Assembly: GCA_012838795.1 (NCBI GenBank)
Contig: DUOO01000010.1
Span: 26,411 to 90,410 of the forward strand
Reading direction: 5' to 3'
DNA: 64,000 bases
Origin: Clostridiaceae bacterium
GTDB lineage: Bacteria; Bacillota; Clostridia; Saccharofermentanales; DTU023
Shown here: piece by piece, positions 53,305-63,661 of the stretch
Position numbering within the stretch: the stretch's first letter is position 1
Layout: every line of letters begins with the position of its first letter
The notes under the pieces: model-generated
Seen by the model: the letters and a program-made list of their open reading frames with translations, nothing else
What the model was told of the DNA's origin: nothing
The model's database searches: none
Program-made: the position numbers and the translations under genes

Positions 53305-53517
53305 ATCTTTATTTCATAATTTGCTGAATCATCACAGGATGAGGTTCGGAGTAAATATCTGTATTTATTTTGATGTTCAGCAACTAAAGCGAAATTCGTT
53401 AAGATTGTTTTGCGTAACTTGATTAACTTTTTAGTAAAAATAAACTATAATATTATAGATTATAGTTAAAAAGACAGAAAAACATTTTAACAAATATAGA
53501 AAAAGAGAGGAATGTTT

Positions 53518-54660
53518 ATGGATTTCAAATTTACGGATGAAACACAATTATTGCAGGAGATGGTTAGTGAGTTCACGGAAAAAGAAATTGCACCGATTGC
53601 GGCGGAAATTGATGAAGAAGAAAGATTTCCGGAGGAAGTAGTAGCTAAAATGGCTGAATTAGGCTTTTTAGGTATTCCATTCCCGGAAGAGTACGGTGGT
53701 GCCGGAATGACAAATTTAGACTATGTTGTTGCGGTAGAAGAAATTTCTAAAGCATGTGCAAGTACAGGTGTTATTGTGTCAGCACATACATCTCTGGCAG
53801 CTTGGCCAATTTATCATTTTGGGACAGAAGAACAAAAACAAAAATATTTGGTCCCGTTAGCAAGTGGAGAAAAATTAGGAGCGTTCGGTTTGACAGAACC
53901 CGGAGCAGGTAGTGATGCTGCCGGACAAGAGACGAAAGCTGAAGATAAAGGTGATCATTATTTATTAAACGGAAATAAGATTTTTATAACGAACGGTTCT
54001 TATGCTGATATTTATGTTGTCTTTGCAATGACTGACAAAGAACAGGGAAACAGAGGTATCAGTGCGTTTATTCTGGAAAAAGGTATGCCGGGATTTAGCT
54101 TCGGTACAAAAGAGAAAAAAATGGGAATTCGTGCTTCTGCAACTTATGAATTGGTTTTTGATGATGTAAAAGTGCCGAAAGAAAATCTGTTAGGTGAACT
54201 GAATAAAGGTTTCGGTGTTGCAATGGCAACATTAGATGGCGGACGTTTAGGTATCGGAGCTCAGGCTTTAGGTATTGCTGAGGGAGCATTTAATGAGGCT
54301 CTTGCCTATGTTAAAGAACGCGAACAATTTGGCAGACCGCTTTCCAAATTCCAATATACTCAATTTAGATTAGCTGATATGTACTCACGTATAGAAGGTG
54401 CTAAATTATTGTTATACAGAGCGGCTTGCATGAAAGATGAAGGAGTTCCTTATTCAGCAGAAGCTGCCATGGCGAAGCTCGTGTGCTCAGAAACTGCCCG
54501 TGAGATTACATGGCAAGCAGTGCAGCTGTTCGGAGGATATGGCTACACAAGAGAATATCCGGTAGAACGTATGATGAGAGATGCAAAAATAACCGAAATT
54601 TATGAAGGAACTTCCGAAGTCATGAAGATGGTTATTTGGGGCAAATTGAACAGAATGTAA
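53518..54660 (+). CDS. Butyryl-CoA dehydrogenase-like acyl-CoA dehydrogenase (canonical catalytic Glu)
   Basis: Very Bcd-like throughout (FGLTEPGAGSD, LDGGRLGIGAQALG). The C-terminal ITEIYEGTSEV carries the MCAD/Bcd-type catalytic Glu. Confidence 0.9.
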   Translation: MDFKFTDETQLLQEMVSEFTEKEIAPIAAEIDEEERFPEEVVAKMAELGFLGIPFPEEYGGAGMTNLDYVVAVEEISKACASTGVIVSAHTSLAAWPIYHFGTEEQKQKYLVPLASGEKLGAFGLTEPGAGSDAAGQETKAEDKGDHYLLNGNKIFITNGSYADIYVVFAMTDKEQGNRGISAFILEKGMPGFSFGTKEKKMGIRASATYELVFDDVKVPKENLLGELNKGFGVAMATLDGGRLGIGAQALGIAEGAFNEALAYVKEREQFGRPLSKFQYTQFRLADMYSRIEGAKLLLYRAACMKDEGVPYSAEAAMAKLVCSETAREITWQAVQLFGGYGYTREYPVERMMRDAKITEIYEGTSEVMKMVIWGKLNRM

Positions 54661-54711
54661 TAATTCGGTTCTTTTAAGGACTGCTGAGCCGGTTACAGGT
54701 ACAATGAAGAA

Positions 54712-54739
54712 GGGTTTGCATGATTAGTTCAGCAAACCC
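54712..54739 (+). terminator. Hairpin between the Bcd-like gene and the first CoA-transferase (attenuator or weak terminator)
   Basis: 8-bp stem gggtttgc / gcaaaccc with a 12-nt loop, followed by tgattatt. Confidence 0.4.
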
Positions 54740-54804
54740 TGATTATTAATTATACTAAAGTTCGAAAAACATATTTTAATTTAGAAAAGATAAGGAGTGT
54801 AATT

Positions 54805-55986
54805 TTGCAACCATTAAAATCTTTGACAGTCATAGATCTGACAGAAGGCAATTATTTTGCCGGTAGTATGTTTGCCGATTATGGAGCAACGGTTATAAAA
54901 ATAGAAAAACCTGATCTGGGAGATAAATTGCGTCAGCGTGGCCGACCAGGCGAAGAAGGCAGATACCATAGCTACTATGATCGGGCAAAGAAAAGCATAA
55001 CTCTTGATATAAGCACTTCGGAAGGTCAGGAAATATTAAAAAAATTAGTACAAAACGCAGATATGTTTTTGACCAATATATCTTTGGAAAAAATTAGTGA
55101 ATATGATATTTCTTATGAGACATTGAAAGCTTTAAAACCGGATTTAGTGTACGGTTTATTAACACCTTTCGGAGAGGAGGGTCCGTGGAAGGACTATCCT
55201 GATTATAATCTGCTGGTGATGAGCCGCAGCGGTTTGCAGGAGAATACCGGTTTCCCGGAAGAACCGACAAGACTGGGTTTCCCATTATCATACATGTATA
55301 GCGGCTGGCTTTTAAGTGCAGGAATGTTGGCAGCTTATATACGTGCCAAAAAGACCGGAGAAGGTGCAAAAGTATCGAACAGTTCCTGGCATATGATGAT
55401 GTCGGTTGACGATACTTATGTCGAAAATCTTCTCGGGTTAAACGTGTTGCCTAAACGAATCGGCAACGGCTTTCCGACAACTAATCCGACAGATACATTT
55501 CGTTGTAAGAATGGCTGGTTTTCATTAAGTATCGGTACTGATAAACAGTGGATTTCGTTTGCACGGGAATGTGGTCGTGATGATTGGGCCGAGGATCCTA
55601 AATATGCACATGATCCCGCCAGATCTATGGAGAATTATTTCGGTGATCTGGATCAACAATTAAATGATTTCTTTAAGACGATTACGGTACAGGAAGCGGA
55701 TGAGATTTGCAGAAGAGCGATGGTACCCGGTGGTCCATGTAATACTATTGCCGAGCTTATCGAAGATGAGCAAGTTGCCAGCAGAGAAATGATTTTGGAA
55801 ATGGAAGATTCCAATGGCCAAAAGAGTCTGCAGATCGGTAAAGCTGCTAAATTTTCAAAAGAAAATGAAATGGATAACAACTTAGCTCCTGCGCCTGAAT
55901 TAGGAGAGCATACGGAAGAAATACTCAATCAACTTGGAATCAACCAAGAAGAAAGAGTGTTATTGAAAAAACAAGGAATTATTTAA
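54805..55986 (+). CDS. Family III CoA-transferase (CaiB/BaiF family), paralogue 1
   Basis: N-terminal L..L.V.DL.. glycine-rich fold and overall CaiB/BaiF-like architecture. TTG start 7 nt after AAGGAG. Confidence 0.85.
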   Translation: MQPLKSLTVIDLTEGNYFAGSMFADYGATVIKIEKPDLGDKLRQRGRPGEEGRYHSYYDRAKKSITLDISTSEGQEILKKLVQNADMFLTNISLEKISEYDISYETLKALKPDLVYGLLTPFGEEGPWKDYPDYNLLVMSRSGLQENTGFPEEPTRLGFPLSYMYSGWLLSAGMLAAYIRAKKTGEGAKVSNSSWHMMMSVDDTYVENLLGLNVLPKRIGNGFPTTNPTDTFRCKNGWFSLSIGTDKQWISFARECGRDDWAEDPKYAHDPARSMENYFGDLDQQLNDFFKTITVQEADEICRRAMVPGGPCNTIAELIEDEQVASREMILEMEDSNGQKSLQIGKAAKFSKENEMDNNLAPAPELGEHTEEILNQLGINQEERVLLKKQGII

Positions 55987-56026
55987 TAGGAGCTTGTCCA
56001 TAAAACCATAAAAGAAAGGGGAAATC

Positions 56027-57238
56027 ATGCCTGAAGAAAACAAAGGAATGTTATGCGGAGTAAAAGTACTTGATTTCACTTTAGCTTTATCAGGTCCTTT
56101 TGTAGCTTGGAACCTTGCAGATTGGGGGGCGGATGTTTATAAAGTGGAACGTTTATATTACGGAGACCAGGCTCGTCATTGGGATCCTATTGTGAACGGG
56201 TTGAGTACACTTTTTGTGGCATATAATAAAAATAAGAAAAGCATAGAAATAGATTTGTCGAAAGATGAAGGCAAACAAATAATTTATGATCTGGCTAAGG
56301 AATGCGATATTGTATTAGAAAACTTCAAGAGCGGTTCAATAGATCGCTTAGGTTTAGGCTATGAAAAATTAAAAGAAATCAATCCTAAATTAGTGTTCTT
56401 GTCACTGAGCGGTTTTGGTGCAACAGGACCTTTAAAACCTTATCCGTGTTACGATGCTATTGCTGCAGCCAGAAGCGGTTTTGCCAGCAGCAGCGGCAAA
56501 CCGGACGGAGCTCCTGTGAAGGCCGGTAATGCTATTTGCGATACTTTAGCAGGTACCTATGCACTTAACGCTGTATTAATGGCATATATCGATGCTCAAA
56601 TAACGGGAGAAGGAACACATATCGATTTAAGTATGACGGACGTCGCAATGGAAACGGTAGCAGAAAGCTTGATCGATTATTCTTATGATCAAGATTTTCA
56701 AATGCGAACAGGAAATCATGATCGATATTTTGCTCCTTATGGAATTTTTAAAGCTGCGGACGGCTGGGTTTCGATTATTGTTGATTCAGAGGAACGTTGG
56801 GCGGTATTTTGCAAGGAGTTAGAGCTCGCTTCAATTATGGATGATGATCGATTTGTTAATAATGCGAAAAGACTTGAGAATAAAGAAGAGTTAATTGAAA
56901 TTATTGAAAATAAAACAGAGAGATTATCTCGATTTTCAATAGAAAAGAAATTACTGGAAGCAGGAGTTCCGGCTTCCGCTATGCTGACTTTTATTGAAGC
57001 ATACACATCAGATCATACAAATTCAACCGATGTGCTGCAAATGGTCAATCAAAATAATATCGGTATGATGCGTTTCTATACGAATCCTTTGCGATTTAAT
57101 GATGAAGTATGTTCAATTCGTTCCGGAACTCCGTTGCTCGGAGAACATACGGTCGAAATCTTAGAAGATATAGGATACTCTGAAGAGAACATACAGGAAT
57201 TGTTAAAAGAAGATGTAATTGGAGAAAGTTTAATATAA
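56027..57238 (+). CDS. Family III CoA-transferase (CaiB/BaiF family), paralogue 2
   Basis: GVKVLDFT..SGPF N-terminus. The C-terminal LGEHT.EILEDIGYSEENIQELL resembles the E. coli CaiB C-terminus (ILKNIGYSENDIQELV) as I recall it. Confidence 0.85.
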   Translation: MPEENKGMLCGVKVLDFTLALSGPFVAWNLADWGADVYKVERLYYGDQARHWDPIVNGLSTLFVAYNKNKKSIEIDLSKDEGKQIIYDLAKECDIVLENFKSGSIDRLGLGYEKLKEINPKLVFLSLSGFGATGPLKPYPCYDAIAAARSGFASSSGKPDGAPVKAGNAICDTLAGTYALNAVLMAYIDAQITGEGTHIDLSMTDVAMETVAESLIDYSYDQDFQMRTGNHDRYFAPYGIFKAADGWVSIIVDSEERWAVFCKELELASIMDDDRFVNNAKRLENKEELIEIIENKTERLSRFSIEKKLLEAGVPASAMLTFIEAYTSDHTNSTDVLQMVNQNNIGMMRFYTNPLRFNDEVCSIRSGTPLLGEHTVEILEDIGYSEENIQELLKEDVIGESLI

Positions 57239-57315
57239 GAGTTATATTTTGCCTTTTAATACAGTATTATTTTTCGTGTTAAATGTTATTTTTTAAAATA
57301 TATAAAGGAGAAAAA

Positions 57316-58089
57316 ATGAGCAAAGAAAAAGTTTTGACTTCATTGGAAGATGGAATTCTGTTAGTAACTTTAAATCGTGAAGAAAAGCGTAATGCCATAG
57401 ACCCGGATACGGCACAACAATTAGAAGCTATTTTCAATGATGCAGAGAAAAATGATGAAGTTAGAGTAATAGTGTTAACCGGAACGGGAAATCGCAGTTT
57501 CTGTGCAGGGGAAGACTTGTCTGTATTTAGTGACAGCGGCGAAAGTCAAACTACAGTAGAACATGGTTTTGCGGGAATTACCGAAAGATTTTCAAGCAAA
57601 CCGTATATTTGTGCAGTGAATGGAACGGCGGTAGCAGGGGGTCTGGAAATTGCACTGTCGTGTGACATCATTGTAGCTTCTGAAAATGCCAGGTTTGGCT
57701 TATCGGAAGTAAGAGTCGGTTTGTTGGCAACCAGTGGCGGTTTAGTCAGATTACCGAACCTTGTTCCTCCTAAGATTGCTGCTGAAATGGCTTTGACCGG
57801 ACAATTGATCAATGCGGAAAAGGCGGAAAAAATTGGTTTGGTAAATTATGTAGTAGCTGAAGACGCCGTGTTGGAAAAAGCGTTAGAGATTGCAAAAACA
57901 ATTAAGAAAAATGCTCCGATTTCATTACGCCTGACTAAAGAAATTCTCCGGCTTTCCGGCCAAGTTTCTTTTGAAGATGCCATGAAATACAGCTCGCTTT
58001 GCTGGGACTATATTGAAAAAACGGAAGATGCCCAAGAGGGGCCTAATGCATTCCTCGAAAAAAGAGAACCGCAATGGAAAAACAGATAG
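57316..58089 (+). CDS. Enoyl-CoA hydratase/crotonase, CaiD-like
   Basis: Crotonase fold (FCAGEDL, AVNG.A.GGG.E.AL.CD). GFAGITE, VRLPNLVPP and the C-terminal EDAQEGPNAFLEKREPQWKNR resemble E. coli CaiD ([37 protein letters not shown]) from memory. Confidence 0.85.
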   Translation: MSKEKVLTSLEDGILLVTLNREEKRNAIDPDTAQQLEAIFNDAEKNDEVRVIVLTGTGNRSFCAGEDLSVFSDSGESQTTVEHGFAGITERFSSKPYICAVNGTAVAGGLEIALSCDIIVASENARFGLSEVRVGLLATSGGLVRLPNLVPPKIAAEMALTGQLINAEKAEKIGLVNYVVAEDAVLEKALEIAKTIKKNAPISLRLTKEILRLSGQVSFEDAMKYSSLCWDYIEKTEDAQEGPNAFLEKREPQWKNR

Positions 58090-58192
58090 AATTTCATTGT
58101 GATTTGAAAGAACATAGTTCAAATTGGGTTTTCTCGTTAACTTGAACAAAGAATAATAACGAGAAACCGAATCAACATATAAGAACAAAATG

Positions 58193-58238
58193 ATCTATAT
58201 ATATGCTCGATTTTTCGAAGTCGAGCATATATATAGAT
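58193..58238. promoter_or_regulatory. 18-bp perfect inverted repeat (10-nt spacer) between the crotonase and etfB
   Basis: atctatatatatgctcga (58193-58210) and tcgagcatatatatagat (58221-58238) are perfect reverse complements. Confidence 0.8.
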
Positions 58239-58274
58239 AGCAGAAAAAATATGAATGAAAAATGGAGGACGTTA

Positions 58275-59084
58275 GTGAACATTTTAGTTTGTGTAAAACA
58301 AGTGCCGGATACTACGGAAATCAGAATTGATCCGGTTAAGAAAACTTTGATCAGGGATGGCGTTCCGAGCATCCTGAATACCTTTGATGCTTTTGCTTTG
58401 GAACAGGCATTGCAACTGAAGGATAAGAATCCCGCCAATGTTAAGATTGTTGTTGCGTCTATGGGACCTAAACAAGCGGAAACGATGTTGAGGGATTGTT
58501 TAGCAGTTGGAGCAAATTCGGCTTATTTGATTACGGATCGCAAATTTGGTGGATCCGATACCTATGCGACAAGCTATATTTTATCTAAAGCTATGAAAAA
58601 AATTGAAGAAGAGGAAGGCTCTTTCGATATGATTTTTTGCGGTAAACAAGCGATAGATGGAGATACCGCTCAGGTAGGACCTGAATTGGCAGAACATTTG
58701 GGTTTACATCAAATTACTTATGCTATTAATATCACATTAAATGAAGATAATACTACTGCTTTAATCACTCGTGAAGTTGATGAAGGAAAAATTGTTGTCG
58801 AAGCCCGGATTCCTGTGTTGGTTACTTTTACCAAAACGGATGATTTAAGATTTGCCTCTATTATGAATAAGATGAAATCTAAGAAAGCGGAAATCAAAGA
58901 AATCAACTACGAAGATTTAGAAGGCATTGACGATACGAAAATCGGCTTGAAAGGATCCCCGACCAGGGTTGTGAAGTCGTTTACGCCGGATGTCAAGACT
59001 GACGGTATCATAATTCGCGAAGATGATCCTAACGAGGCTTTTGAGAAATTTGCCGAAGAGCTTGAAAAAGCGAAATTGTATTGA
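58275..59084 (+). CDS. etfB: Electron transfer flavoprotein beta subunit
   Basis: (V)NILVCVKQVPDTTEIRIDP is a canonical clostridial EtfB N-terminus. GTG 58275 lies 5 nt after GGAGGA. The longer ORF-track start is unlikely. Confidence 0.9.
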   Translation: MNILVCVKQVPDTTEIRIDPVKKTLIRDGVPSILNTFDAFALEQALQLKDKNPANVKIVVASMGPKQAETMLRDCLAVGANSAYLITDRKFGGSDTYATSYILSKAMKKIEEEEGSFDMIFCGKQAIDGDTAQVGPELAEHLGLHQITYAINITLNEDNTTALITREVDEGKIVVEARIPVLVTFTKTDDLRFASIMNKMKSKKAEIKEINYEDLEGIDDTKIGLKGSPTRVVKSFTPDVKTDGIIIREDDPNEAFEKFAEELEKAKLY

Positions 59085-59101
59085 CAGTGAGAGGTAAAAC
59101 T

Positions 59102-60109
59102 ATGTTTGAAAACAAGAATTTTTGGGTATATATAGAAACTAAAGAAGATGGATCTGCTAAAAATGGCGGCTTAGAACTTTTAGGACAAGCTCGTGAAATG
59201 GTGGATCAGGTAGATGAAGAAGTTATTGCCTTGATTATTGGTAATAATGTTGATAAAGCAGTAGAGCAAGTCAAAAAATACGGTGCAACATCTGCAATTG
59301 CAGTAACCGGAGATGTATACTCTGAATATAATACGGATGTGTACGCCAATGCAGTAGTAGAAAATGTTAAGGAATATCAACCGAATGTAATTTTAATTTC
59401 AGCTACCAGTTTGGGCAGAGATTTAGGACCGCGTGTAGCGGGTCGTTTAGCAACTGGCTTGACCGCAGATTGTACATCTTTAGGTTTTGAAGTTGATAAA
59501 AAAGAAGTTCAATGGACACGTCCGGCTTTTGGCGGAAATCTCATGGCGACAATCATATGTGCAGACCATAGACCTCAGATGGGAACTGTTCGCCCGGGTG
59601 TATTTGAAAGAAAAGAATACGAAATATCTCCGAACTTTGAAGTTATTACCAAGGATATCGACTTTCCGCAAGAGAAAATTCTTTCTCGTATTGTCGAGGT
59701 AATAGTAGATGAAGATGCAGATAACGTCGATTTGGAAGGTGCAGAAATTATCGTTTCCGGTGGTCGCGGACTCGGAAAACCGGAAAATTTCAAATTAATT
59801 GAAGAATTGGCAGAAGTATTAGGCGGAACAGTAGGTTCTTCGCGTGCAGCCGTTGACGCAGGATGGATTTCTCATGCTCATCAAGTAGGACAAACGGGAA
59901 AAACGGTAGGCCCGAAATTATATATTGCATGCGGTATTTCCGGTCAGATTCAACATCTGGCAGGGATGTCCGGATCGGATGTTATCATTGCTATCAATAA
60001 AGATGAGAATGCACCGATTTTCACAGTTGCGGATTACGGAATTGTAGGCGATTTGTTCACTGTTGTACCGAAATTGACAGAAAGAATTAAGAAGAAGAAA
60101 AATCTATAG
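59102..60109 (+). CDS. etfA: Electron transfer flavoprotein alpha subunit
   Basis: C-terminal FAD-binding region SGGRG..SRAAVDAGW..QVGQTGK.V.PKLYIA.GISG.IQH. No N-terminal ferredoxin domain. Confidence 0.9.
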   Translation: MFENKNFWVYIETKEDGSAKNGGLELLGQAREMVDQVDEEVIALIIGNNVDKAVEQVKKYGATSAIAVTGDVYSEYNTDVYANAVVENVKEYQPNVILISATSLGRDLGPRVAGRLATGLTADCTSLGFEVDKKEVQWTRPAFGGNLMATIICADHRPQMGTVRPGVFERKEYEISPNFEVITKDIDFPQEKILSRIVEVIVDEDADNVDLEGAEIIVSGGRGLGKPENFKLIEELAEVLGGTVGSSRAAVDAGWISHAHQVGQTGKTVGPKLYIACGISGQIQHLAGMSGSDVIIAINKDENAPIFTVADYGIVGDLFTVVPKLTERIKKKKNL

Positions 60110-60219
60110 TATCCTAATACAAGATATTTATCCGGTTTGTTCAAGTTTTCTTAAACAAGAATCAGAAAGATAGACAAATAAAAGATAAATAATAGCTCAT
60201 TATAATTATTTAAGTATCC

Positions 60220-60253
60220 AGAGCTGCTATTTATAAGGAATAGCGGCTCTTTT
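60220..60253 (+). terminator. Rho-independent terminator after etfA
   Basis: 12-bp stem agagcugcuauu / aauagcggcucu with one G-U pair, 7-nt loop, then TTT. Confidence 0.65.
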
Positions 60254-60329
60254 ACTTTGTTTAATGGGAATATAATATTTTTTGATATACTATGACAAAA
60301 CTATCTTTTTGATTGTTGTTAAGTACGAA

Positions 60330-60863
60330 TTACTTGTTTTTGAATTTTTCATAATGTCGACCGAGTGCATTAAGTGGCGGACACCAATTAATAAATAATG
60401 ATACACAAAGTCCTATTGTCATATTAATAAATCTGTCTGCTACATATATAAGAGGATCACTAATCCCTGATGAAGATAAACATGTAAGCATATAATAGAT
60501 TAGACCTATTGCTATACCGTCAGATAATTTCAATAAATTGAAAATTATCATCAAAGGTATTGTAAAAAGAGAGAATAAAATAACATAAAGTAAAGATAAG
60601 CTTTCAACATTTAATACACCGACAAAAAGATAGTAAAATATAATTGAATATATACCACTGATGACGATTCCCAAAATACGAAGTTTTCCGCGTGAGTAGG
60701 AACTATCCATATTAATTTGCATTACCAAAATAGCTGATATACCTGAAGTAACCATATTAGGAGAATCTCGCAAAATATCTATGGTGATACAAATAAATAT
60801 AGCCAATGTTGTTTTCAACATTCGCATCCCGGGTAGAAAATGACGTATTTTATTTTTTTGCAT
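60330..60863 (-). CDS. ArAE/FUSC (UPF0421)-like membrane protein, membrane domain only (177 aa)
   Basis: The R.LKTTLAIFICI N-terminus and the C-terminal R..N..IG...S..IN...PP pattern resemble aromatic-acid-exporter-family proteins. Roughly half the usual length. Confidence 0.5.
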   Translation of the reverse strand: MQKNKIRHFLPGMRMLKTTLAIFICITIDILRDSPNMVTSGISAILVMQINMDSSYSRGKLRILGIVISGIYSIIFYYLFVGVLNVESLSLLYVILFSLFTIPLMIIFNLLKLSDGIAIGLIYYMLTCLSSSGISDPLIYVADRFINMTIGLCVSLFINWCPPLNALGRHYEKFKNK

Positions 60864-60966
60864 TGTTAATTAATTTTCTATGTACTTTGTAAATTTTGTG
60901 CATAATAAATCAGATATGCCGGCAGCAAATCTTTGGCCGGCAACTGTATGAGATCAAATTAAAACT

Positions 60967-60997
60967 GCCAAACAATTACCGCCGGTAATTGTTTGGC
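60967..60997 (-). terminator. Rho-independent terminator after the MFS gene (minus strand)
   Basis: Perfect 14-bp stem gccaaacaattacc / ggtaattgtttggc with a 3-nt loop. On the minus strand it is followed by aGTTTTaattt. Confidence 0.75.
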
Positions 60998-61029
60998 GTT
61001 CTAAAACTGTTCTTGACAGCTGATTATTA

Positions 61030-62337
61030 CTAATCTGCTGCAGCTTCTTTTGCTGCCACAACTTTTTTGTGTTTGACAACGATTTTTTCGCCTAATATCG
61101 CAACTACAATACCGACAGCTGCCGTAATAAGCAAGAAGGTAAATATTCTCTTATAAGCAACCAACTGATCCAGATTGTCTAACCAATTTCCAAATAAGGT
61201 ATGGATAAAAGTATCCGGCAAATAACCTAATAAGGAAGCTGCACCGACAACACTGCCTACCATCATTTTCGGCGTTCCGGCTTCATCGATGATCGCCCAA
61301 TAAAGGGAGCGATTTCCGTAGCTGGCAAAACTGATTACTACCATAATTACCATCATTAAAATCAATGTTGAATTGGAAGGCGCAACTCCGACAAGAGCTA
61401 ATGAACCTAATAAAGCGATAACACATCCGACAATCAACATGAATGTAGAGCGTTTCATTTTAGTTGAGGCAATCCCGAAGACAGCAGATGCTGCCAGCCG
61501 GCTACCTTGAGCTCTGATTGCCTGGAACGTTCCTGTCGCAACTACAGTAAGTCCTGCGAAAGCTTGGAGATACGGGGCGTAATATGCTGCGACAGCATTC
61601 GCTGTAGAAGAAACGAAGATCATTACAATTAATACCCAAGTAATTGGCAACTTAAATGTACCGAGTATAGCTCTGATACTTTCTCTCATATTAGTATTCG
61701 ATACACCTTCGGCCTCCATTTTGGGGAAGAGGAACTGCATCAATATACCGACAAGAATCATGATAATTGATACAACAATTACCAGGAATGTGATTCCCTT
61801 AATATTACCTTCAGTTGTATCTACTATTTTTTTGGCGAAATAAGAGAAAGCTGCGATCCATACAGCGTTCAAAGCAAGTGTTACTATACCGCGACCGCCC
61901 TCTAAGGCACTATACATACCGCCTTGCTCGTCTGAACCGGCAATTAAGTTAACGACCTTGATTGATGCTGACCAATAGGTCAAAACGGTAGTAAAGGCCC
62001 ATAAAGCATGAATAATCAGTATTACCGTATAGCCCGGCCATGTGGCTAACCAAAGACCTAATGCACCGCTGGAAATCATTGAAAAGACTAACAGCTTTTT
62101 CGGGCTGAATCTATCTGCAATAATTCCGCCCGGCAAGTAGAATATTACGTTAAATAGTCCGTAAATTGACATTGTGTTCCCAAATTTTTCAGCTTCACCT
62201 ACCAAACCCATGGCTTGTTGCAAAGGTTCGAAAAAGGTGTATCTGATATAAGGCAGAACATAAATGGTTTCAAGCGAAAGAATCATCAGTATAAGAACAA
62301 TAAATTGATTCTTTCTTGATGTTTTTGATTTTGACAT
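61030..62337 (-). CDS. MFS transporter (12 TM)
   Basis: 435-aa polytopic protein. The D-R-x-x-x-K loop (IADRFSPKKLL) after TM2 is typical of the MFS. GAGGAGG RBS. Confidence 0.8.
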   Translation of the reverse strand: MSKSKTSRKNQFIVLILMILSLETIYVLPYIRYTFFEPLQQAMGLVGEAEKFGNTMSIYGLFNVIFYLPGGIIADRFSPKKLLVFSMISSGALGLWLATWPGYTVILIIHALWAFTTVLTYWSASIKVVNLIAGSDEQGGMYSALEGGRGIVTLALNAVWIAAFSYFAKKIVDTTEGNIKGITFLVIVVSIIMILVGILMQFLFPKMEAEGVSNTNMRESIRAILGTFKLPITWVLIVMIFVSSTANAVAAYYAPYLQAFAGLTVVATGTFQAIRAQGSRLAASAVFGIASTKMKRSTFMLIVGCVIALLGSLALVGVAPSNSTLILMMVIMVVISFASYGNRSLYWAIIDEAGTPKMMVGSVVGAASLLGYLPDTFIHTLFGNWLDNLDQLVAYKRIFTFLLITAAVGIVVAILGEKIVVKHKKVVAAKEAAAD

Positions 62338-62383
62338 ATTTACCTCCTCATATCATTCCTATTTTCATTAATATTTAATTAAT

Positions 62384-62426
62384 AACTGATACAATTATTT
62401 TATTTGGATTGATAATTGTATCAGTT
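62384..62426 (-). promoter_or_regulatory. Perfect 15-bp stem-loop between the CaiA-like gene and the MFS gene
   Basis: aactgatacaattat (62384-62398) and ataattgtatcagtt (62412-62426), with a 13-nt loop. Confidence 0.7.
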
Positions 62427-62443
62427 TAGGATATGCAATTTAT

Positions 62444-63583
62444 TTATTCATATTGTCTAAGTATTTGTTTAGTAGCAATTAATGTTTGAATTTCACCTGT
62501 TCCGCCGGAAATACGTGTGATTCTCAAGTCGCGATAAATCCTGCTTACACGACTGCCGCAGTAACCGATGCCGGCCAAAACTTGCATTGCATGATCAACC
62601 ACTTCATTTGCGGCTTCTGAGCAATACTGTTTTGCTAAAGAGGCTTCTTCACGTTTCAGAATACCTTGATCTTTATTCCAGGCGAAATGCAAGCAAAGAT
62701 CTCTCATGGTATAAATCCGCATTGCCATCTGCATGATATGGTTTCTGATCAGTTGTCTGCTTGTAATGGGTCTGCCTTGAACAAGCCTTTGATTGGCATA
62801 CCTGCAGGCATCTTCATAGGCACATAAAGCTTGACCATATGCATTGAAAGCATCAACCAGTCGTTCGTAATCCAGAGCACTGGAAGCAGCCGTTAAACCA
62901 TTTCCGATACCGCCGAAAATAGCAGCCTCGCTTACGACAACATCATCAAACCAAACATCGCATACATCTTCCATGTTCAGACCCATTTTTTCCATGGGTT
63001 CGACTCTGGCACCTTCTACTTTCGTAGGAACGAAAAACAAAGTTAATTCTTCGGGATTCTCTGAATTCTTTGCTAAAGTCATACAATAGTCGCTGTTTGT
63101 TGCCCCGGAAATAAAGTGCTTATGTCCGTTAATGGAGTAATTTCCGTCCTCTTTTAGCGTATATGTTGTTTGAATTGAATTGGAAGATAAGTCAGTTCCG
63201 GCACTTGGCTCAGAATAGCCTTGTGAAAAAGCCGATTTGCCTTCAAGGAATAAAGGCATAAACTTGTCAATTTGCTCCTGGGTTCCGTCAGTTTGCAGGT
63301 CGTCTACTTTTACATGTTCCCAGAACAGGTAGATAGGTGCACCAAGACGTCCCATCTCTTCCATGGCTAAAAACATGGATACTGCTCCCTCTCCGTCTCC
63401 GCCGTATTCTTCCGGAATGAACATACTATGTAAGCCTAAGTCAGAAATGATATCCCACCATTTTTGGGGGAACTCATGATTTCTGTCACATTCCAGAAAA
63501 TATGGTTCCAGATTTTCACGTGTCATTGCATCTCTGATAGCTTCGACCATTAGCTCTTGTTCTTCTGAAATTCTAAAATCCAT
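62444..63583 (-). CDS. CaiA-like acyl-CoA dehydrogenase (crotonobetainyl-CoA reductase / BbuA-type candidate)
   Basis: MDFRISEEQELMVEAIRD, GTQEQIDKF, AYGQALCAYEDACRYANQR and RDLRITRISGGTGEIQ parallel E. coli CaiA (MDFNLNDEQELFVAGIRE, GTQEQIDK, NYGTAMCAFEDAARYANQR, RDLRVDRVSGGSDEMQ) as I recall it. GAGGAGG RBS. Confidence 0.8.
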   Translation of the reverse strand: MDFRISEEQELMVEAIRDAMTRENLEPYFLECDRNHEFPQKWWDIISDLGLHSMFIPEEYGGDGEGAVSMFLAMEEMGRLGAPIYLFWEHVKVDDLQTDGTQEQIDKFMPLFLEGKSAFSQGYSEPSAGTDLSSNSIQTTYTLKEDGNYSINGHKHFISGATNSDYCMTLAKNSENPEELTLFFVPTKVEGARVEPMEKMGLNMEDVCDVWFDDVVVSEAAIFGGIGNGLTAASSALDYERLVDAFNAYGQALCAYEDACRYANQRLVQGRPITSRQLIRNHIMQMAMRIYTMRDLCLHFAWNKDQGILKREEASLAKQYCSEAANEVVDHAMQVLAGIGYCGSRVSRIYRDLRITRISGGTGEIQTLIATKQILRQYE

Positions 63584-63661
63584 AACTCCTCCTCTAAAAT
63601 AATATCTTATTTATTAAAAATGATTGCCAGGTTCCATTTTAGCTAAACTAATCCCGAGCAA

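Follow-up and report, generated by a model that had tools for sequence, protein, structure and literature searches.

The window (i.e., the whole 64,000-nucleotide stretch of DNA analysed here) carries on its minus strand a gene for an acyl-CoA dehydrogenase (ACAD) of the CaiA clade, which we will refer to as P0001. Its open reading frame of 379 codons is preceded by a strong Shine-Dalgarno sequence, and it has as neighbours genes for a second ACAD, two CoA-transferases, a crotonase, Etf proteins and a transporter, with further genes of the same kind lying beyond the end of the window. The features are listed below, with the basis of each assignment in brackets.

53512..54660, plus strand: Bcd-like ACAD paralogue with the canonical layout, LDGGRLG and Glu365 at 54604-54606 (alignment, NCBIfam)
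54805..57238, plus strand: two family III (CaiB-family) CoA-transferase genes (NCBIfam matches all below cut-off)
57283..58089, plus strand: CaiD-like crotonase gene (41% identity to E. coli CaiD; NCBIfam CaiD model 199 bits, cut-off 500)
58203..60109, plus strand: clostridial-type EtfB and EtfA genes (domain and profile matches)
61030..62337, minus strand: MFS transporter gene, directly downstream of P0001 on the same strand (Pfam MFS_1)
62444..63583, minus strand: CaiA-clade ACAD gene, P0001, 379 aa (open reading frame and translation)
62504..62506, minus strand: codon of Gly360, in the J-K loop at the position of MCAD Glu376 and of the Bcd catalytic Glu (translation, alignments)
62861..62863, minus strand: codon of Arg241, anchor of the helix-G alignment (invariant in alignments A1 and A3)
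62864..62866, minus strand: codon of Glu240, proposed catalytic acid/base in helix G, at the position of IVD Glu254 and LCAD Glu291 (translation, alignments, AlphaFold2 model)
63586..63594, minus strand: Shine-Dalgarno sequence GAGGAGGAG, with two bases (TT) between its end and the ATG (direct sequence reading)
Locus L004 2423-3199, beyond the window end, divergent from the P0001 gene: FixA-like gene (41.5% identity to E. coli FixA)
Locus L004 3312-4226, beyond the window end, divergent from the P0001 gene: FixB-like gene (35% identity to E. coli FixB)
Locus L004 4346-5920, beyond the window end, divergent from the P0001 gene: CaiC-like ligase gene (38% identity to E. coli CaiC)

We found that P0001 contains all three ACAD domains (N-terminal PF02771, middle PF02770 and C-terminal PF00441), with Pfam scores of 73.3, 70.2 and 125.2 bits against gathering cut-offs of 22.9, 33.3 and 22.4, respectively, which places it in the ACAD superfamily. 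The best NCBIfam model was CaiA (NF002885), whose equivalog cut-off of 540 was missed at 380.8 bits, and the YdiO-type model PRK12341 came a close second (371.1 bits, cut-off 537). E. coli CaiA resembles P0001 in its length class, in its N-terminus (MDF..EEQEL) and in sequence (40.6% identity, sister clades), whereas P0001 differs in scoring below the CaiA equivalog cut-off and in belonging to a small-genome Clostridia bacterium. This genome (2.09 Mb) encodes only two ACADs, both of them at this locus. The nearest public relative is a Saccharofermentanales metagenome-assembled genome (96% identity), and homologues at 66-74% identity were found in Roseburia, Lachnospiraceae, Petralouisia muris, Oscillospiraceae, Hungatella and Clostridium brassicae, among others.

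Two positions for the catalytic base of ACADs have been described: Glu254 of IVD and Glu291 of LCAD project from helix G, and these residues are topologically equivalent, as catalytic bases, to Glu376 of MCAD in the J-K loop (PMC11153573). P0001 has the IVD/LCAD type of layout, i.e., a helix-G Glu that replaces the J-K-loop Glu. Specifically, positions 62852-62878 of the minus strand translate to ALDYERLVD and positions 62495-62515 to RISGGTG, and when P0001 was aligned with solved ACADs by HMMER (5lnx, 4n5f, 4u83, 4m9a, 2dvl, 2vig) we found S359-G360-G361-T362 opposite Y-E-G-T and Y239-E240-R241 opposite x-G-R. A preliminary description of this DNA had reported a Gly at the canonical Glu site of the CaiA-like protein, and both the translation and the HMMER alignments bear this out (RISGGTGEIQ, Gly360). 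It had also reported the canonical Glu in the Bcd-like paralogue, which can be read directly from the sequence as Glu365 in the loop motif IYEGTSEV (codon 54604-54606), together with LDGGRLG at helix G. The same description had aligned the Glu of ALDYERLV with Glu254 of IVD, and here too we arrived at the same residue, Glu240. Alignment A1 pairs DYERLVD and RISGGTGEI of P0001 with NMERAIL and SIGAGTNEI of an IVD orthologue, P0100. The corresponding segments of human IVD (1ivh) are LDLERLV and EIGAGTSEV, and P0100 shows no gaps against them; the residue mapping from P0001 to human IVD is thus made in two steps, via P0100. In entry 9jq4, which holds an IVD variant, the sequence is LDLARL, with Ala exactly at the helix-G Glu of 1ivh. 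Glu240 itself was invariant in 8 close homologues (alignment A2) and throughout the 52 CaiA/YdiO-clade rows in the tree described below.

An AlphaFold2 (AF2) model of P0001, built from a 53-sequence alignment (mean pLDDT 93.8), places E240 within the counterpart of helix G (residues 229-265) and G360 in a loop (residues 357-362) between helices 345-356 (J) and 363-377 (K). Given that the alignments are anchored on the invariant Arg241, beside which they are gap-free, and on the GT motif, and given the AF2 secondary structure, Glu240 occupies the IVD/LCAD base position, with Gly360 replacing the MCAD/Bcd base. The model has an ACAD fold, with Foldseek TM-scores of 0.88-0.93 to SCAD, MCAD, IVD, LCAD and an engineered MCAD mutant, T255E/E376G. 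IVD (1IVH) and LCAD (8W0T) have, like P0001, a Glu ahead of the invariant Arg in helix G and a small residue at the MCAD Glu376 site; however, while their TM-scores to the P0001 model are 0.90-0.91, their identity is just 25-26% (1ivh, 8w0z). This identity, together with the distant tree rows, argues against orthology of P0001 to either enzyme, and a phmmer search of the PDB with P0001 ranked Bcd/SCAD types above both. IVD and LCAD work physiologically in the direction of oxidation. We found no solved CaiA-clade structure in sequence and Foldseek searches of our PDB copy, in which the best identity was 32%. For the C-terminal half of P0001, the match to the 1egc/1egd sequence (77.8 bits) was better than those to the remaining human MCAD sequences, 1ege/1t9g and 2a1t/8sgp (71.2-71.3 bits). 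In Foldseek, 1egd and 1ege bear an identical title, that of the MCAD T255E/E376G mutant; we take the 1egc/1egd sequence to be that of the mutant and 1ege/1t9g to be wild type. On this assumption, the higher score would be a small hint, independent of the alignments above, in favour of the helix-G layout.

The layout is not confined to P0001. E. coli CaiA (b0039, MG1655) reads FDHERFL and RVSGGSDEM, and E. coli YdiO (b1695, a putative acyl-CoA dehydrogenase/enoyl-CoA reductase) reads FEMERLI and RIGGGTDEI, each with a Glu in helix G and a Gly in the J-K loop; CaiA additionally matches P0001 in combining the helix-G ER with the loop S-G-G (DHER/VSGGS compared with DYER/ISGGT). In the CaiA/YdiO-group homologues P0002-P0083 a Glu precedes the Arg and the loop residue is Gly or Ala, the sole exception being P0082, a fused fragment. 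To place these sequences we used a tree of 86 sequences obtained by a quick maximum-likelihood search (IQ-TREE) with midpoint rooting only. In this tree a CaiA/YdiO superclade of 52 rows, every one of them with the E/G or E/A combination, was split from the remaining sequences with an SH-aLRT support of 100. Within it, the clade of P0001 (8 rows) was sister to that of E. coli CaiA (6 rows; SH-aLRT 99) and the YdiO-like sequences formed a separate branch, so that this quick, midpoint-rooted tree groups P0001 with CaiA rather than with YdiO. By sequence, then, P0001 is placed in a Clostridia-specific branch that is sister to the enterobacterial crotonobetainyl-CoA reductase CaiA. Four residues of P0001 (Ser359, Tyr85, Tyr141 and Tyr249) were common to the CaiA clade only.

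We also searched 1.84 billion cluster representatives (50% identity) exhaustively with phmmer and took the best 150 matches. Among the 129 of these that were full length, 54 had a helix-G Glu without a loop Glu and approximately 64 had a J-K-loop Glu. Since the two were never found together (0/129), the helix-G Glu and the J-K-loop Glu are mutually exclusive alternatives in these representative clusters. A relocation unique to P0001 can be dismissed, as YdiO and many unrelated clusters have the helix-G Glu too. Instead, the helix-G layout is an ordinary one, namely the family-wide state of CaiA/YdiO and a common one in prokaryotic ACADs, and would be an ancestral trait of the whole superclade and no adaptation peculiar to P0001. 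The tree contained a single IVD-like and a single LCAD-like row, both on long branches outside the CaiA/YdiO clade, and on that thin sampling no kinship with IVD or LCAD is apparent; the helix-G base of CaiA/YdiO may represent a relocation independent of the one in IVD and LCAD.

The exceptions to a J-K-loop base listed in two ACAD papers are IVD, LCAD and benzylmalonyl-CoA dehydrogenase only (PMC11153573, PMC11659651), to which the CaiA/YdiO superclade would be a large addition. The case appears to be unlisted rather than unknown, being visible in any alignment, and full-text searches found no statement of the catalytic residue of CaiA or YdiO and no mutagenesis of its base.

The preliminary description had further proposed that the relocated base suits an enzyme acting on a bulky trimethylammonium acyl-CoA, whether by reduction or by elimination of trimethylamine (TMA). 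To our knowledge, a single ACAD that eliminates TMA is known, namely BbuA. The BbuA of Emergencia timonensis acts in this way on gamma-butyrobetainyl-CoA, and its gene resembles that of P0001 in encoding an ACAD-fold flavoenzyme beside two family III CoA-transferases, with a trimethylammonium acyl-CoA as the substrate, which for P0001 is a predicted one (PMC8364193). All 18 BbuA sequences in supplement 7 of that study read VEARLG and RIWEGTSEIQ, i.e., they have the canonical loop Glu and an Ala before the Arg (PMC8364193). Compared by eye, these motifs do not match the DYERLV and RISGGTGEIQ of P0001. Two observations weigh against tying the relocated base to a bulky trimethylammonium acyl-CoA, namely that the YdiO branch has the helix-G layout and that BbuA keeps the J-K Glu; as a pointer to TMA elimination the relocation fares no better, the layout of BbuA being the opposite one. 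Considering that the YdiO branch has the layout and BbuA does not, we conclude that the relocation predates carnitine-type (betaine) specificity and does not track it, and a layout that is family-wide therefore carries no special signal on substrate or chemistry. In sum, the residue positions given in the earlier description stood up to the alignments and the AF2 model, while the functional rationale built on them did not, given that YdiO shares the layout and BbuA lacks it.

The gene of E. coli CaiA adjoins fixAB-, caiC- and caiD-type genes, and putative counterparts of these lie near the gene of P0001. The CaiC-like ligase scored 575.9 bits against the NCBIfam crotonobetaine/carnitine-CoA ligase model (cut-off 651), with the next model at 358.6, and the FixA-like protein scored 204.1 bits against the FixA model (cut-off 219) and higher against the YdiQ model; the CaiC-like, FixA-like, FixB-like and CaiD-like proteins are thus all present near P0001 and all fall under their equivalog cut-offs. 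For the two CoA-transferases the top NCBIfam model was succinate-glutarate CoA-transferase. The two transferases are only 24-27% identical to E. coli CaiB; judged by sequence, they appear as near to other family III enzymes as to CaiB, with no predicted CaiB specificity. In contrast to the E. coli cai cluster, no homologues of CaiT, CaiE, FixC or FixX were seen in the cluster of P0001, which adds a Bcd, a second Etf pair, an MFS transporter and an esterase. To convert carnitine to gamma-butyrobetaine, a pathway requires a single ACAD and a single Etf, and the cluster has two of each.

To see how far this arrangement is conserved, we tallied 36 Clostridia loci in which the CaiA-like gene reached 60% identity or more, detecting their neighbours by homologue search (tblastn). 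The cluster is conserved in about 36 genomes of gut Clostridia. A Bcd-like neighbour was found at 33 of the 36 loci, mostly directly downstream of the CaiA-like gene, followed in frequency by a CaiD-like gene (32), two transferases (29), FixAB-like genes (28) and a CaiC-like ligase (26). An MFS transporter homologue and a family IV esterase were each found at 20 loci, clostridial EtfBA at 18-19 and PatB at 11. The usual gene order in these related loci was CaiB1-CaiB2-(MBL hydrolase)-CaiD-CaiA-like-Bcd. The gene for P0001 thus flags a cai-like cluster that is conserved among gut Clostridia, which we regard as more interesting than the base layout itself and which could bear on the microbial metabolism of carnitine, gamma-butyrobetaine and TMA.

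Taking the alignments and the AF2 model together, P0001 is probably a FAD-dependent ACAD of the CaiA/YdiO superclade with Glu240 as its catalytic acid/base. The most economical reading of its activity would be that of a FAD-dependent enoyl-CoA reductase/acyl-CoA dehydrogenase of the crotonobetainyl-CoA type, and on this reading we infer the catalytic role of Glu240, the substrate and the electron donor as follows. In the reductive direction, a 2-enoyl-CoA would receive a hydride from reduced FAD at C-beta and a proton from Glu240 at C-alpha, where this residue would act as proton donor or acceptor. The substrate would be crotonobetainyl-CoA or a close analogue, and the electrons would be supplied by the FixAB-like flavoprotein encoded divergently just past the end of the window. 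We put the odds that crotonobetainyl-CoA is the real substrate at roughly even. The true substrate may differ because neither the Bcd that is conserved next to P0001 nor the additional pair of Etf proteins would be required for a simple pathway from carnitine to gamma-butyrobetaine.

One alternative is that P0001 is a generic YdiO-type short-chain enoyl-CoA reductase (acting on, e.g., crotonyl-CoA) with no link to betaines, in which case the helix-G Glu would still be the base. E. coli YdiO does resemble P0001 in having the helix-G Glu, the J-K Gly and a FixAB-type Etf partner (YdiQR for YdiO, a predicted one for P0001), and P0001 is 38.8% identical to it, as against 40.6% to CaiA. The two NCBIfam scores are likewise nearly equal (380.8 bits for CaiA, 371.1 for the YdiO-type model) and both below cut-off, the FixA-like protein prefers the YdiQ model over that of FixA, the CoA-transferases lack CaiB specificity, and most related loci have SSF and MFS transporters instead of BCCT. 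On the other hand, the tree pairs the clade of P0001 with CaiA (SH-aLRT 99) and not with YdiO. The YdiO-like sequences differ from P0001 in their separate branch, in reading G-G-G for S-G-G and in lacking Tyr85, Tyr141 and Tyr249, so that these three residues and Ser359 are shared with the CaiA clade alone. Moreover, the neighbouring ligase best fits the crotonobetaine/carnitine-CoA ligase model (575.9 vs. 358.6 bits), and for plain crotonyl-CoA the cluster already has a canonical Bcd. We consequently regard a YdiO-type function as unlikely. Annotations within the YdiO-like branch were limited to generic or putative acyl-CoA dehydrogenase.

A wider reading concerns the cluster as a whole, i.e., the CaiC-like ligase, FixAB-like Etf, two CoA-transferases, CaiD-like crotonase, CaiA-like ACAD, Bcd, EtfBA, MFS transporter and esterase. 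It is conceivable, if very unlikely, that these genes encode a Gram-positive, carnitine-type betaine pathway which reaches further than the enterobacterial cai pathway and releases TMA without bbu genes. In such a pathway the CaiA-like enzyme, either by itself or paired with Bcd-EtfBA, might with similarly small probability lead to crotonyl-CoA and on to butyryl-CoA plus trimethylamine. The gene content would be compatible with this long shot, but the catalytic layout lends it no support. If true, gut Lachnospiraceae and Oscillospiraceae would have a second anaerobic way of forming TMA that has so far gone unrecognised.

Also very unlikely, we believe, is that P0001 is itself a BbuA-like TMA lyase acting on gamma-butyrobetainyl-CoA, whose crotonyl-CoA product would then be reduced by the adjacent Bcd-EtfBA. 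Such a lyase would account for the retention of Bcd and a bifurcating-type EtfBA beside the CaiA-like gene (33/36 loci) and would fit a genome without any further ACAD, and BbuA shows that the ACAD fold is capable of TMA elimination (PMC8364193); however, the BbuA layout is the opposite one (J-K Glu in RIWEGTSEIQ, Ala at helix G in VEARLG) and P0001 groups with the reductase CaiA in the tree. The partners differ as well: the ferredoxin, BCCT transporter and thioesterase of the bbu cluster (PMC8364193) were absent from the 36-locus homologue tally and from the Pfam-annotated gap genes of locus L013. The published list of bbu carriers, for its part, comes from a search with a membership criterion of >70% identity to E. 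timonensis BbuA (PMC8364193). We retain the crotonobetainyl-CoA-type reductase as the preferred reading of P0001. An inactive or pseudo-enzyme was rejected, given that the clade shows no variation at Glu240, at Arg241 or at the residues that bind the nucleotide, and that the gene has a strong ribosome-binding site.

A gene cluster of about 12 members (window 53512-63583 together with loci L005-L039 and L045) is conserved across 36 gut Clostridia genomes. Its genes encode the CaiA-like acyl-CoA dehydrogenase (ACAD) and Bcd, a FixAB-like Etf and EtfBA, a ligase, two CoA-transferases, a CaiD-like crotonase, an MBL hydrolase, an esterase and transporters. The cluster retains two ACADs and two Etf pairs; a simple pathway from carnitine to gamma-butyrobetaine needs neither the second ACAD nor the second Etf pair. 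Several members lie on L004 (the locus of the same contig that reaches past the window end) or on L013 (the locus of one relative):

L004:2423-5920, contig DUOO01000010.1 (C31), window 64833 onward, cut off by the nearby window end: FixA-like, FixB-like and CaiC-like genes, divergent from the CaiA-like gene
L004:5954-6334, running off the contig end: family IV esterase (HGGG, Abhydrolase_3)
L013:16373-17389: family IV esterase
L013:8359-8979, flanked by the second CoA-transferase gene and the CaiD-like gene: GloB-like MBL-fold hydrolase

The FixA-like, FixB-like and CaiC-like genes opposite the CaiA-like gene mirror the E. coli caiTABCDE / fixABCX layout, and the CaiC-like protein matches the crotonobetaine/carnitine-CoA ligase model at 575.9 bits, below the cut-off of 651. 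The esterase was found repeatedly (20 of the 36 related loci) and could act as a hydrolase of acyl-carnitine or other esters, feeding the pathway. The GloB-like protein of L013 may be a thioesterase; the remaining relatives have a gap of 0.7-0.9 kb at its place, and the window has no such gap between CaiB2 (end 57238) and CaiD (start 57283).

Within the CaiA-like ACAD itself (P0001), Tyr85, Tyr141, Tyr249 and Ser359 are conserved across its own clade and that of E. coli CaiA, but not across YdiO-like or Bcd-like sequences. These four residues are candidate members of an aromatic cage that would bind trimethylammonium.

One clade of ACAD-like proteins (P0091, P0093, P0096-P0098, P0103-P0108, P0110 and P0113) lacks both known catalytic Glu residues: the helix-G Arg is preceded by Gly (IGDVGRGG), and the J-K site is occupied by Ala (GPSAGTSDI). 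In PDB 4rm7, a solved ACAD of unassigned function, FADGTDEV aligns opposite ISGGTGEI of P0001, which places Asp instead of Glu at the J-K catalytic site; the same G/D pattern occurs in 6 of the 129 representative clusters (those that were full-length among the best 150 matches to P0001).
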